In this document: in pieces, positions 24,786 to 28,711 of the stretch
Numbering within the stretch: the first letter of the stretch is position 1
Layout: each line of letters begins with the position of its first letter
IMG/VR virus record: IMGVR_UViG_3300032249_000542
Coordinates: 1 to 64,000 of that record
Strand: one strand, 5' to 3'
DNA from: a virus
Length of the DNA: 64,000 nucleotides
Translations under genes and position numbers: made by a program
Notes under the pieces: model-generated
What the model saw: only the letters and a program-made list of their open reading frames with translations
What the model was told of the DNA's origin: nothing
Databases searched by the model: none

Positions 24786-24873
24786 GGAAGTGTGGCTGAG
24801 TGGTTTAAGGCAGCGGTCTTGAAAACCGTCGTATCGAAAGGTACCGTGAGTTCGAATCCCACCACTTCCGCCA
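24786..24873 (+). tRNA. tRNA-Ser(TGA)
   Basis: Cloverleaf, long variable arm, encoded CCA. Confidence 0.95.
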
Positions 24874-24878
24874 GTAAT

Positions 24879-24970
24879 GGAAATATGGCTGAGAGGCTTA
24901 AGGCAGCGGTTTGCTAAACCGTCGATCATGTTAAAATGGTCCGTTGGTTCGAATCCAACTATTTCCGCCA
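24879..24970 (+). tRNA. tRNA-Ser(GCT)
   Basis: Cloverleaf, long variable arm, CCA. Confidence 0.95.
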
Positions 24971-24975
24971 GTTAT

Positions 24976-25053
24976 GGTTAGGTGGCTGAGTGGTCCAAAG
25001 CAGCAGTCTGCAAAACTGTAAAACCGTCGGTTCAAATCCGACCCTAACCTCCA
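24976..25053 (+). tRNA. tRNA-Cys(GCA)
   Basis: Cloverleaf, U73 discriminator, CCA. Confidence 0.95.
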
Positions 25054-25087
25054 TTATTAAAATGGAAACATGTTGTCAAAATGATAC

Positions 25088-25263
25088 TGTTGTATTTACG
25101 CAACAAACTAATTGTTGACATATAGCGGGTCTTTTGATATAATAGATTTTGTTGAGTTGATAGAGAAAAAGAAAAAAGTGTTGTTTTTATACAACAAACT
25201 AATTGAAATAAGTTGTTGACATATAGCGGGTCTTTTGATATAATAGATTTTGTTGAGTTGATA
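25088..25263 (+). promoter_or_regulatory. tandem duplicated early sigma70 promoters, each with the upstream palindrome
   Basis: 51-nt exact direct repeat (25112-25162, 25213-25263), each TTGACA-17-TATAAT; palindromes at 25088 and 25179. Confidence 0.85.
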
Positions 25264-25273
25264 AAGAAAAAAA

Positions 25274-25433
25274 ACAGACAAGTGCGGTCTGTCTCTGTAA
25301 AGAGTTAAGCAAGGGTTTGGTGCAGTAATGACTTCGGCACCATGTAATAGTCAGTTCCTTGTTAGCATTAGATCAGATGGTAGGCAACTACCCAATGGTT
25401 GTAGGTGACGATGGGCTTTATAGGAACCTTCAA
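25274..25433 (+). ncRNA. unknown structured RNA, copy 1
   Basis: Stems, GNRA loops and pseudoknots covary with copy 2. Confidence 0.7.
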
Positions 25434-25446
25434 GATTTTAAAAAAA

Positions 25447-25638
25447 ACGGAAATGAGCAATCCGTCTCTGAAAAGAGTTTAACAAGGGTGTGGTGCGTTA
25501 ATACTGCTTCGGCATCACGTAATAGCGATCCTTGTTAATGTTCGAGATCAAACGGCATAGGAAATACTACACAAGTTTGTGTAGTACGTAGCTATGACAA
25601 TGGTTGTAGGTGACGATGGGATTCTATAGGAACCTTCA
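25447..25638 (+). ncRNA. unknown structured RNA, copy 2
   Basis: Same architecture with compensatory changes and one extended hairpin. Confidence 0.7.
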
Positions 25639-25688
25639 GATTATTATCGGTTGTGGGTATACGGGTACAGGAACCCTCAAGAATTTAT

Positions 25689-25763
25689 GCACCGTTCGTC
25701 TATCGGTTAGGACCCCGCCCTTTCACGGCGGTAAGAGGAGTTCGATTCTCCTACGGTGTACCA
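25689..25763 (+). tRNA. tRNA-Glu(TTC)
   Basis: Cloverleaf, CCA. Confidence 0.95.
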
Positions 25764-25819
25764 GTTTATTTTTTAGGAGAGTCCATTATGGACAGCGATA
25801 AGAGTATTAACAAAACGAA

Positions 25820-25895
25820 GGAGCTATAGTCAAACGGTTAAGACAGCGGACTTTTAATCCGTCAGGTCAGGGTTCGAATCCCTGTGGCTCCACCA
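25820..25895 (+). tRNA. tRNA-Lys(TTT)
   Basis: Cloverleaf, CCA. Confidence 0.95.
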
Positions 25896-26002
25896 TAGTA
25901 AAGCATATTTCAGGTTGGACTATTTCTAGAATAGTTATTTGGGTCGGTAGATGGGATTTGATGCCTAATCGAGACTAAGATACGGAGTATGCTTTACTAT
26001 GG
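25893..26002 (+). ncRNA. long-stem hairpin element starting at the tRNA-Lys CCA
   Basis: CCATAGTAAAGCATATT / AGTATGCTTTACTATGG 17-bp stem. Confidence 0.55.
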
Positions 26003-26008
26003 TTCAGA

Positions 26009-26082
26009 TGGGAATTGGTGAAATGGTATCACACCGGATTTTGATTCCGAGGTTGTAAGTTCGATCCTTACATTCCCTGCCA
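26009..26082 (+). tRNA. tRNA-Gln(TTG)
   Basis: Cloverleaf, U1:U72 mismatch, CCA. Confidence 0.9.
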
Positions 26083-26086
26083 TCTA

Positions 26087-26362
26087 TAATTAGACGGTAT
26101 GTTTGAGTTCTGCAAACTCCTAGAGTTAATTGTGGTTGACTTGCATACCGTGACAATCTAATGAGTTCATCCAGTATGAATAGTTAGGCATTAGTTTTTA
26201 CTTGAGTTATGGCAAGTGGTCCATAAACAGGAGTGTAACCTGATAGGCATAGAAAATAAATGCTTAACGTGATGAGCCAGTTTTGACCGTGGGCTTTAGG
26301 CAAGAAACACATAAGAAAACGGCAGGCGCTAAACAAGATTACAATCGCCTAGGTAATCAAGA
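26087..26362 (+). ncRNA. unknown multi-domain structured RNA (~275 nt)
   Basis: No ORF; about ten stems and a 3' H-type pseudoknot; lies between two tRNAs. Confidence 0.6.
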
Positions 26363-26366
26363 ATAT

Positions 26367-26441
26367 GGTTCCAAAGTGTTCATGGACGCACGTATGCCTG
26401 TCACGCATAAAGAAGGGGATCGTTACCCCTTGGGACCGCCA
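26367..26441 (+). tRNA. tRNA-Asp(GTC)
   Basis: Cloverleaf, G73, CCA; atypical T loop ATCGTTA. Confidence 0.9.
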
Positions 26442-26467
26442 AAGTATTTTTAACTGATGGAGATAAA

Positions 26468-26656
26468 ATGAGTAAAGTTTACTTAGGTCGTTTTAATCAG
26501 TATAAAGTTGGCACTAGAATTGCCACTGGTATGAAAGAAGCAAAGTTTTATCAACGTGGTTATATGTTGATGAGCGGTAAAGAATATAAGATTGAAAAAT
26601 TAAACAAGATTGTCCGAGTGTGGCACGATATTGATGAAGGTTTTATTGTAGTATAA
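26468..26656 (+). CDS. hypothetical protein within the tRNA array
   Basis: GGAG RBS. Confidence 0.6.
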   Translation: MSKVYLGRFNQYKVGTRIATGMKEAKFYQRGYMLMSGKEYKIEKLNKIVRVWHDIDEGFIVV

Positions 26657-26664
26657 AATTCTAT

Positions 26665-26740
26665 TCCGAGATAGCTCAGCGGTAGTAGCAGTTGACTGTT
26701 AATCAATTGGTCGTAGGTTCGATCCCTACTCTCGGAGCCA
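26665..26740 (+). tRNA. tRNA-Asn(GTT)
   Basis: Cloverleaf, CCA. Confidence 0.95.
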
Positions 26741-26748
26741 GTTTCAAT

Positions 26749-26833
26749 GGAGATGCGGCGCAGTTGGAGAGGCGCGGCTGACTGTAAATCAGTTCTTTCG
26801 GGTGAGTAGGTTCGAATCTTACCATCTCCACCA
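26749..26833 (+). tRNA. tRNA-Tyr(GTA)
   Basis: Cloverleaf with variable arm, CCA. Confidence 0.95.
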
Positions 26834-26835
26834 AT

Positions 26836-26910
26836 GGTGTCTATAGTGTAGTGGAAGCATTGCTCTCTGTGAAAGAGTAGGTACGGGGTCGGTACCCGTT
26901 AGACACCCCA
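26836..26910 (+). tRNA. tRNA-His(GTG)
   Basis: G-1:C73, CCA; atypical T loop GTCGGTA. Confidence 0.9.
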
Positions 26911-26913
26911 AGG

Positions 26914-26970
26914 TTAAGTTTACAATGGCAGCATTTTAAGTTTACAATGGTAGCGTTTTAAGTTTACAAT
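26914..26970 (+). repeat. 22-nt tandem repeat, about 2.6 copies
   Basis: TTAAGTTTACAATGGYAGCRTT x2 plus TTAAGTTTACAAT. Confidence 0.85.
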
Positions 26971-27045
26971 CGGTCTTTAGTAAAATGGATATTACGGTTG
27001 GCTACGAACCAGCAAGTGGGAGTTCGATTCTCTCAGGACCGGCCA
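26971..27045 (+). tRNA. tRNA-Arg(ACG)
   Basis: Cloverleaf, CCA. Confidence 0.92.
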
Positions 27046-27112
27046 TAATGAAATACATTTCGATGCTGTTCCGCGGCAGCGACCAAAAAGAGAGAAGTGT
27101 ATTTCATTATGG
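27043..27112 (+). ncRNA. long-stem hairpin element starting at the tRNA-Arg CCA
   Basis: CCATAATGAAATACATTT / AAGTGTATTTCATTATGG 18-bp stem. Confidence 0.55.
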
Positions 27113-27185
27113 TAATGTAGCACAGCGGTAGTGCAGCTCCTTCATACGGAGTTGGTCGGGAGTTCGAATCTCTCCATTACCACCA
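27111..27185 (+). tRNA. tRNA-Met(CAT), elongator-like
   Basis: Cloverleaf, G1-C72, CCA. Confidence 0.85.
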
Positions 27186-27187
27186 AT

Positions 27188-27263
27188 GCCGATTTAGCTC
27201 ATCAGGTAGAGCAGTTGATTTGTAATCATCAGGTGGTGGGTTCGAGTCCTGCAATCGGCACCA
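27188..27263 (+). tRNA. tRNA-Thr(TGT)
   Basis: Cloverleaf, CCA. Confidence 0.95.
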
Positions 27264-27271
27264 GAATTTAT

Positions 27272-27348
<77 letters not shown>

Positions 27349-27356
27349 GTATTAAT

Positions 27357-27432
27357 GGGGGTGTAGCTCAGCTGGGAGAGCGGTTGCTTTGCAAGCAATA
27401 GGTAGCGGGTTCGAGTCCTGTCACCTCCACCA
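27357..27432 (+). tRNA. tRNA-Ala(TGC)
   Basis: G3:U70, CCA. Confidence 0.95.
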
Positions 27433-27434
27433 AT

Positions 27435-27509
27435 GCCGATTTAGCTCAGTGGTAGAGCACCGTCTTGATAAGGCGGGGGTCCTTGGATCGTTCCCAAGAA
27501 TCGGTACCA
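27435..27509 (+). tRNA. tRNA-Ile(GAT)
   Basis: Cloverleaf, CCA; atypical T loop ATCGTTC. Confidence 0.9.
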
Positions 27510-27516
27510 GTTTTAT

Positions 27517-27592
27517 TGCGGGTTAGGGAAGTGGTCATCCCGTTAGGCTCATAACCTGAAGATCGTTGGTTCGAATCCATCACCCGCAACCA
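27517..27592 (+). tRNA. tRNA-Met(CAT), initiator-like
   Basis: TGCGGGT acceptor with weak 1:72 pair; GGCTCATAACC anticodon arm. Confidence 0.8.
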
Positions 27593-27605
27593 ACAAAGGT
27601 GAACT

Positions 27606-28076
27606 ATGAAAAAAGTTATTGACATTGACGAAGTAAAAGAGTATATTAGTCATTGTGGTCCAGATACTAAGATTTATCTTGGTGCGGACTCTGAACGATT
27701 TCAGATAGGTAAAGAATGGTTCGCCGATTATATTTTAGTTGTCGTTATACATATTGATGGATGCCATGGTTGTAAAATCTTTGGTTCTGTTGAGCGTGAG
27801 CGAGACTATGAGGTAAAGAAAAGTAAACCACGTATGCGTTTAATGAACGAGGTTTATAAAGTTGCTGACTTGTATTTGAAAATGGCAGATATACTTGAGG
27901 ATTTTGAAGTCGAGGTTCACCTTGATATCAACCCAAGTGAGATGCATGGTTCAAGTTGCGTTATTAATGAAGCGATAGGTTACATTCGTGGTATGTGTAA
28001 TGTTATACCACTTGTAAAACCAAAAGCATTCGCAGCAAGTTATGCAGCAGATAGATATAAAAGTTTTGCAGGTTAA
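27606..28076 (+). CDS. RNase H-like YkuK-family protein
   Basis: IYLGADS, RLMNEV, EVHLDIN, KPKAFAASYAAD. Confidence 0.8.
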   Translation: MKKVIDIDEVKEYISHCGPDTKIYLGADSERFQIGKEWFADYILVVVIHIDGCHGCKIFGSVERERDYEVKKSKPRMRLMNEVYKVADLYLKMADILEDFEVEVHLDINPSEMHGSSCVINEAIGYIRGMCNVIPLVKPKAFAASYAADRYKSFAG

Positions 28077-28077
28077 T

Positions 28078-28153
28078 GCGGGAATAGCTCAGTTGGTAGA
28101 GCGTGTGCTTGCCAAGCATAAGGTCGAGAGTTCGAGTCTCTTTTTCCGCTCCA
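28078..28153 (+). tRNA. tRNA-Gly(GCC)
   Basis: Cloverleaf, U73, CCA. Confidence 0.95.
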
Positions 28154-28157
28154 GTAT

Positions 28158-28231
28158 TACGGTGTGGCGTAGTGGCAGCGCAGGAGTCTCCAAAACTCTT
28201 AGTGGGGGTTCGATTCCCTCCACCGTAGCCA
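28158..28231 (+). tRNA. tRNA-Trp(CCA)
   Basis: Cloverleaf, G73, CCA. Confidence 0.95.
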
Positions 28232-28239
28232 AGTTTAAT

Positions 28240-28313
28240 GCGGGATTAGTTTAATGGTAAAACGAAAGCCTTCCAAGCTCTAGTCATCAGTTCGATTCTG
28301 ATATCCCGCTCCA
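28240..28313 (+). tRNA. tRNA-Gly(TCC)
   Basis: Cloverleaf, CCA. Confidence 0.95.
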
Positions 28314-28321
28314 AGTTTTAT

Positions 28322-28396
28322 GCACCGTTAGCTCAGCGGTAGAGCAACTCCCTTACAAGGAGAAGGTCTGCGGTTCGATCCCGTGACGGTGTACCA
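28322..28396 (+). tRNA. tRNA-Val(TAC)
   Basis: Cloverleaf, CCA. Confidence 0.95.
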
Positions 28397-28397
28397 T

Positions 28398-28473
28398 GCT
28401 ACTTTAGCTGATGTGGTCATAGCGGCGGTTTGAAGAACCGTTGAACGTGGTTCGATTCCACGAGGTAGCACCA
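28398..28473 (+). tRNA. tRNA-Phe(GAA)
   Basis: Cloverleaf, CCA. Confidence 0.92.
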
Positions 28474-28479
28474 AGTTAT

Positions 28480-28556
28480 GCGCTGGTGACGGAACTGGTA
28501 TACGTGTTGGTCTTAGAAACCAAATTTTAGGAGTTCGACTCTCCTCTGGCGCACCA
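28480..28556 (+). tRNA. tRNA-Leu(TAG), short variable loop
   Basis: 77-nt cloverleaf; variable loop is only ATTTT. Confidence 0.9.
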
Positions 28557-28557
28557 T

Positions 28558-28634
28558 GGGCCTTAAGCATAAGTGGTATAGGCAACCGACTCATAATCGG
28601 TAGACAGTTGGTTCGAATCCAACAAGGCCCACCA
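28558..28634 (+). tRNA. tRNA-Ile2(CAT), lysidine type
   Basis: GGGCCTT acceptor; CGACTCATAATCG anticodon arm as in bacterial Ile2. Confidence 0.8.
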
Positions 28635-28636
28635 AT

Positions 28637-28711
28637 CTGGCGTTAGTTCAATGGATAGAACAGTAGCCTTCTAAGCTATAAATGCAGGTTCGATTCCTGC
28701 ACGCCGGACCA
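28637..28711 (+). tRNA. tRNA-Arg(TCT)
   Basis: Cloverleaf, CCA. Confidence 0.95.

Follow-up and report, generated by a model that had tools for sequence, protein, structure and literature searches.

Among the tRNA genes of a large freshwater phage, what is the repeated, apparently folded sequence that lies between two duplicated promoters and tRNA-Glu, and is it an RNA? The stretch of DNA analyzed here (the window) comprises 64,000 nucleotides, the first 64 kb of a 169,777-bp viral record with direct terminal repeats (IMG/VR record IMGVR_UViG_3300032249_000542). It carries the T4-type baseplate genes gp5 and gp6, a ribonucleotide reductase, 25 tRNA genes at 24786-28711 and a two-piece tmRNA. 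A sequence-only reading of this window had proposed that a single, double-pseudoknotted RNA of unknown family, present as two diverged and covarying copies plus a third mini-copy of its last domain, heads the main tRNA transcript, and that a ribozyme, a ligand binder or a protein-decoy RNA were all possible. We find that the observation itself is correct, as every helix named in that reading is present. Its interpretation is only partly supported, given that the sequence comprises two independent modules rather than one RNA.

Two diverged copies follow duplicated promoters

Between tRNA-Cys, which ends at 25053, and tRNA-Glu(UUC), at 25689-25763 on the plus strand, lie two sigma-70 promoters on the plus strand at 25115-25143 and 25216-25244, each matching all 12 consensus positions and possessing an extended -10. 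Each is preceded by an operator-like palindrome of 5 nt, an 8-nt spacer and 5 nt (25088-25105 and 25179-25196), which forms part of a longer repeat and lies 9-19 nt upstream of the -35. The tRNA and RNA operon therefore looks like part of a repressor-controlled early regulon. The second promoter ends 25 nt before the repeated sequence begins.

In copy 1, P1 pairs 25274-25279 with 25287-25292, followed by the P2 hairpin with a GNRA loop (25293-25304). P3 (25309-25315 with 25356-25362) encloses P4 (25318-25323 with 25337-25342). The loop of P4 (25329-25333) pairs with 25349-25353 to form pseudoknot PK2, and the loop of P1 (25281-25285) pairs with 25365-25369 to form pseudoknot PK1. A GNRA hairpin (25379-25392) and an invariant 3' block (25393-25432) complete the copy. 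Copy 2 (25442-25638) possesses the same layout with the compensatory differences listed in the sequence-only reading, and its GNRA hairpin is replaced by a longer hairpin at 25556-25596. Alignment of the two copies yields 80% column identity, with the differences clustered in helices. The mini-copy at 25649-25679 repeats only the last block and carries the paired A/U to G/C change.

Two separable modules rather than one RNA

To examine whether these elements constitute one RNA, we next searched for relatives. An exact 23-mer from the 3' block recovered 13 IMG/VR contigs, degenerate patterns for the 5' part recovered 30 viral contigs, and the same approach recovered 98 freshwater metagenome stretches. 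In these sequences the 5' part (unit A, 104 nt) occurs alone directly before a tRNA, in tandem arrays of two or three with a 111-nt period, or followed by the 3' part (unit B), while unit B occurs alone between two tRNAs in three of the recovered loci (L004, L011 and L015). Other orders of the two modules also occur. The proposal of a single RNA is therefore not supported as written.

In the window the order is A-B-A'-B'-b''-tRNA-Glu, all on the plus strand. Unit A copy 1 (25269-25372) consists of an A-rich lead-in, P1, P2, P3 enclosing P4, PK2 (P4 loop with the J4/3 segment) and PK1 (P1 loop with the 3' tail). Unit B copy 1 (25370-25432) consists of a conserved lead-in, the GNRA hairpin, a 4-nt linker and a compact element that we term the B-core (25397-25432). 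Unit A copy 2 (25442-25545) is among the most diverged copies found, with different letters in both pseudoknots, and the same variant occurs in loci L078 and L094. Unit B copy 2 (25546-25638) possesses an outer stem (25556-25560 with 25592-25596) carrying an inserted 9-bp hairpin, followed by its B-core (25602-25638), whereas L078 has the same outer stem with a plain GNRA loop. The third, minimal B-core (25649-25679) has a short loop and no preceding hairpin, carries G-C at the covarying pair, and lies 9 nt before tRNA-Glu.

Covariation supports the fold of unit A

The sequence-only reading had held that an absence of covariation in homologues would remove the RNA claim, and had suggested a covariance model built from the copies. 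A covariance model (R1) was constructed from 27 sequences using only the four nested helices. It finds 122 copies in 100 sources at 64-127 bits, of which 88 are distinct, and scores the window copies at 126 bits (E 2e-26) and 92 bits (E 1.5e-18). Pairs were then counted on this alignment with the two pseudoknots added by hand. Of 2,775 cells, 96.3% form standard pairs, compared to 34-41% when the 3' partners are slid by 1-3 columns. Fourteen of 32 pairs change on both sides, in 241 cells, and none of 500 shuffles reaches the observed pairing, number of cells changed on both sides or covariation score. Because the sequences are related, the shuffle controls overstate significance, and the nested helices were fitted by the model. 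The pseudoknots, however, were not part of that model, and their support is independent of the alignment method. All six helices contain at least one pair with compensatory change, namely five in P1, two in PK1 (one of them A-U in 41 and U-A in 40), two in P2, one in P3 (G-U to U-A in 10), two in P4 and two in PK2. By contrast, single-sequence folding, which does not model pseudoknots, was uninformative, with z-scores of -0.8 and -1.75.

The core of unit A (P3, P4, PK2 and their junctions) is almost invariant, while the adjacent tRNA-Glu differs clearly among the same contigs.

Genomic context of unit A

Across 113 distinct contexts, all 600 tRNAs within 2 kb of unit A lie on its strand. The next feature downstream is tRNA-Glu(UUC) in 39 contexts (3-13 nt away in 29 of them), a B-core in 26 (mostly at a fixed 24 nt), another unit A in 19 (7-8 nt), and tRNA-His, Met, Lys or Arg in 6. 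Of 88 distinct upstream flanks, 50 carry a strong consensus-like sigma-70 promoter, mostly a perfect 12/12 match, ending 15-42 nt (mostly 22-30) before unit A, with a conserved lead-in between them. The remainder follow another unit A or a tRNA. Unit A is thus typically the first folded element of a strongly transcribed tRNA operon, but the leader position inferred from the sequence alone is not universal, as some copies lie mid-array behind a tRNA.

Unit A was found only in freshwater viral and metagenome contigs. A blastn search of 50,697 deposited phage records did not find it, nor did it occur in the phages that carry unit B only; bacterial genomes were not searched for it. Turning to expression, contigs from metatranscriptome libraries of several studies, four runs in all, overlap parts of 25222-25759. 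The lack of a discrete transcript had also been named in advance as grounds for rejecting the RNA. These contigs are of low depth and show neither starts nor stops, DNA carry-over is not excluded, and parts without cover are not evidence of anything, such that we regard this support as weak. No mature ends are known.

The B-core is a wider phage motif

Unit B is a conserved lead-in, a variable hairpin, a 4-nt linker and the B-core. The hairpin occurs with four different stem sequences, all Watson-Crick, usually with a GNRA loop. The B-core (31-37 nt in the window) reads GGUUGU-N-GGU, then a loop of 13-29 nt that usually starts GAC and ends AGGA, then ACC-N'-UCA, forming a 6-bp helix interrupted by one conserved U-U mismatch and closing a loop with fixed ends. 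A relaxed scan of IMG/VR found it in 23 further loci comprising 16 distinct sequences, in 13 of which N and N' are complementary, as A-U, G-C or C-G. A second covariance model (R2) scores unit B copy 1 at 51.6 bits and the minimal B-core at 38 bits (E 1.5e-6), and adds diverged members with further compensatory changes, namely L153 1224-1264 and two more in L142. In 29 distinct sequences the six pairs are 99.4% paired, one pair being AU in 16, GC in 11 and CG in 2. A second pair also changes on both sides, and the U-U mismatch is kept in 28 of 29.

Many of these loci belong to quite different, GC-rich phages that lack unit A. In them the B-core lies about 5 nt after a tRNA or 4-10 nt before one (L142-L145, L148 and L153), behind two or three other hairpins upstream of an ORF (L136, L137, L140 and L155), or upstream of an ORF that looks by eye like a small terminase subunit, on which no family search was run (L141 and L152). 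Three cultured phages also carry unit B. In Xanthomonas phage XAJ2 it lies between an ORF and an intrinsic terminator, with the B-core 6 nt before the terminator and ahead of the lysis genes. In Pseudomonas phage HU1 it lies 19 nt after tRNA-Asn and ahead of a terminator and the terminase gene, and in Xanthomonas phage JGB6 it lies between two unannotated tRNAs. In unrelated phages the B-core occurs beside tRNAs or ahead of late genes, and its distances to tRNAs are about 5 nt after, or 3-10 nt before.

The window's own genome contains only the three clustered B-cores. A scan of 185,579 prokaryote genomes gave five loci, none beside a tRNA, with a complementary covarying pair at only one of six sites, and we treat these as chance.

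Comparison with known RNA families

A confident Rfam match had been named beforehand as the result that would remove novelty. Rfam 15, searched at gathering score and at E up to 10 with the window, 14 B-core loci and the three cultured-phage loci, gives no match for unit A or unit B, while the same searches detect tRNAs, tmRNA, one GOLLD and one pistol ribozyme elsewhere. Literature searches found no description of either RNA.

GOLLD and ROOL are phage-encoded, ornate, pseudoknotted RNAs of unknown function, often near tRNA islands (PMC12286853). They exceed 500 nt, compared to 104 nt for unit A and about 40-65 nt for unit B, and their Rfam models do not match the window, although the GOLLD model did detect a full GOLLD (210 bits) at L145 13068-13477, in the same tRNA array as a B-core. 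Phage T4 keeps two small stable RNAs of unknown function (rnaC/species 1 and rnaD/species 2) in its tRNA cluster, on the tRNA strand and directly abutting a tRNA. They lie at the 3' end of the cluster, whereas the RNAs described here lie at the head, and neither R1 nor R2 finds a match in the T4 tRNA locus, nor is any likeness seen by eye.

Theta (minimal HDV-like) ribozymes are small double-pseudoknotted RNAs, embedded in phage tRNA arrays and with a role in tRNA transcript processing, that lie within about 5 nt of tRNA 3' ends and possess the HDV nesting and a catalytic C (PMC10879173). No ribozyme family matches 25050-26700 at E up to 10. The helix order of unit A supported by covariation (P1, PK1-5', P1', P2, P3, P4, PK2-5', P4', PK2-3', P3', PK1-3') is not the HDV-like order (P1-P2-P3-P3'-P1'-P4-P2', with cleavage at the first base of P1), and the B-core has nothing conserved after its 3' strand that could give a P4 or P2. 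As to position, unit A lies 5' of tRNAs, while the B-core starts about 5 nt after a tRNA in L143, L144 and L148 but 14 nt or more after one, or next to no tRNA at all, elsewhere, a mixed picture that does not settle this criterion. The loop ends of the B-core recall, but do not match, the hammerhead core. In most B-cores the loop starts G-A-C and ends G-G-A next to the helix, which allows the tandem G-A pairs of a kink-turn. The required bulge and second stem are present in only some (for example L143 and L144), and four members lack the G-A, so that kink-turn membership is left undecided. The remaining candidate was a type III antitoxin RNA (ToxI-like), for which repeats of about 34-45 nt beside a ToxN-type gene are expected. 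The unit A repeat period is 111 nt in relatives and 173-205 nt in the window, and a ToxN_toxin search of the 170-kb genome returned nothing, yet the control genomes gave no match either, leaving this candidate neither supported nor excluded.

Mimicry of rRNA (the L11-binding region of 23S, helix 45 and the 3' end of 16S) was also considered. Only shared words of 5-8 nt appeared, by our estimate about what chance gives, and without a formal test we dropped this reading. For the B-core, a CsrA-type GGA sponge, T-box or RNase P style pairing of GGU with tRNA CCA ends, and an sRNA seed were considered without being assayed.

Possible functions of the two RNAs

The analyses above establish that both modules are real, conserved folds, unrelated to each other and each duplicated here, that lie on the tRNA strand inside phage tRNA arrays, are packed within a few nucleotides of tRNA ends or of each other, and in this window are driven by duplicated consensus early promoters. 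We hold with high confidence that they are structured RNAs made with the tRNAs. Their job is still unknown, and the ribozyme, ligand-binder and decoy roles were not tested. The following steps, in contrast, are inferences. Both modules would be transcribed as part of the tRNA precursor and released by host tRNA-processing nucleases, with RNase P at the next tRNA setting the 3' side and RNase Z or RNase E cuts in the short AU-rich linkers setting the 5' side. This would give abundant, stable RNAs early in infection, as for the stable non-tRNA species of T4. The mature RNAs would then act in trans by binding a conserved partner stoichiometrically, as a decoy or sponge for a host or defence factor. 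Near-invariant cores, tandem amplification and very strong promoters fit this mode of action best, yet we advance it only tentatively, as no partner is identified and tandem A-A-A arrays, with no tRNA between units, would require another nuclease or self-cleavage for excision.

Several alternatives were weighed against this model. The frequent position just behind a promoter also fits a cis-acting nascent-RNA leader that, like HK022 put RNA or rRNA-operon antitermination leaders, binds the elongating polymerase and renders it resistant to Rho or to terminator-like hairpins along a multi-kilobase untranslated tRNA operon. A near-invariant core would suit contact with a conserved polymerase surface, and the B-core, given its location in XAJ2 and HU1, could play a related role just ahead of terminators. 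The put RNA is a highly conserved, 73-nt promoter-proximal element of two stem-loops at the start of a long phage operon that acts without proteins (PMC9378689), and unit A shares the placement shortly downstream of a promoter. The two long stem-loops of put form a V with a triplex and bind the beta' zinc-binding domain to suppress termination; polymerase binding and sequence likeness to put were not measured here, and the HK022 record does not annotate put. On its face the secondary structure of unit A, with four helices and two pseudoknots, differs. Many copies of unit A lie mid-array behind a tRNA or another unit A, two or three tandem copies are not needed for a cis modifier, and no terminator-like site is predicted inside the window's array between 25300 and 28866. 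We regard this reading as unlikely, though not excluded. Somewhat less likely still is that one or both modules are self-cleaving ribozymes of a new class that cut the precursor into units, as theta and pistol ribozymes do beside phage tRNAs. The compact double pseudoknot with almost invariant junctions, and the tandem A-A-A arrays with 7-8-nt linkers that self-cleavage would resolve, keep this possibility alive, as does a pistol match (38.9 bits, cut-off 34.5) at L148 4057-4104, in a tRNA array and next to a B-core. Against it stand the Rfam results and helix orders described above, and no cleavage data exist.

A ligand-sensing aptamer that tunes tRNA-operon output, with PK1 forming or opening according to a metabolite, is improbable. 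The conservation pattern is aptamer-like, with an invariant core, covarying outer helices and a 3' tail engaged in a pseudoknot, and tandem aptamers occur in other riboswitch classes. However, no riboswitch family matches and no expression platform is present, as unit A is followed by a tRNA 3-13 nt away, another unit A or unit B, with no terminator-like site predicted after it, and the U-runs after the B-core are inconsistent. The variable spacing to the tRNA also argues against direct control of RNase P access. Least likely, and in our view very unlikely, is a role at the DNA level (protein-binding sites, recombination scars or a small mobile element) with an incidental RNA fold. The modules are indeed shuffled, duplicated and recombined between genomes, and the B-core stem is conserved in sequence, not only in pairing. 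Yet compensatory changes keep six helices, including two pseudoknots that make no sense in duplex DNA, the strand is that of the tRNAs in 600 of 600 cases, and the window's genome has only the three clustered B-cores.

These results define two new RNA families with folds of their own among the orphan structured RNAs co-transcribed with phage tRNAs. Phage tRNA arrays are now seen as counter-measures to tRNA-targeting defences, and repeatedly turn out to carry unexplained structured RNAs such as GOLLD, ROOL, theta ribozymes and the T4 stable RNAs. A core more conserved than the tRNA beside it is the signature that has preceded the discovery of ribozyme and riboswitch classes. It is possible, though we consider it unlikely, that unit A is a new class of functional RNA with an active mechanism, either a self-cleaving ribozyme or a protein-free modifier of RNA polymerase at the head of phage tRNA operons, and that the B-core is a new, widespread phage RNA motif recognized by a universally conserved host component. 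If either RNA binds polymerase, a nuclease or a defence protein, it would add an RNA-based layer to how phages control or protect their translation supply. The B-core links T4-type freshwater phages, GC-rich phages and cultured Xanthomonas and Pseudomonas phages through one 31-45-nt motif, and thus provides a direct experimental handle.

Other elements in the tRNA arrays

The GOLLD and pistol matches noted above indicate that arrays carrying a B-core collect several kinds of structured RNA. In the window, a second ORF-free structured region lies between tRNA-Gln and tRNA-Asp (26087-26362). Its first ~115 nt (about 26090-26205) recur closely in L004 and L028, where this sequence directly follows the unit A array instead, and it behaves as a third shuffled RNA module. 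The region also holds a 15-nt stretch (26284-26298) resembling part of the B-core loop. Between tRNA-Glu and tRNA-Lys (25772-25819), a Shine-Dalgarno-like run and a short palindromic hairpin around an ATG are conserved in L004, L022 and L033, and could represent a 13-codon mini-ORF running into tRNA-Lys or simply another spacer hairpin. Two ORFs on the plus strand lie inside the array. A 156-aa ORF (27606-28076) matches Pfam PF04308 (RNaseH_like, E 2.7e-15), a possible nuclease gene embedded among the tRNAs, while a 62-aa ORF (26468-26656) has no Pfam match, although an ORF with a similar N-terminus (a short 'GRFN' run) follows tRNA-Glu in L034 and L036.

In the GC-richer phages (L136 5880-5954, L137, L140 and L155), the B-core is preceded by about 70 nt that fold into three covarying hairpins and is followed by a ribosome-binding site and an ORF, and may form the 3' domain of a larger RNA. 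Finally, in L142 (424-511, minus strand) two diverged B-cores stand in tandem next to a tRNA, one with an A-U and one with a G-C covarying pair, in a contig that also possesses a canonical B-core at 1547-1581.
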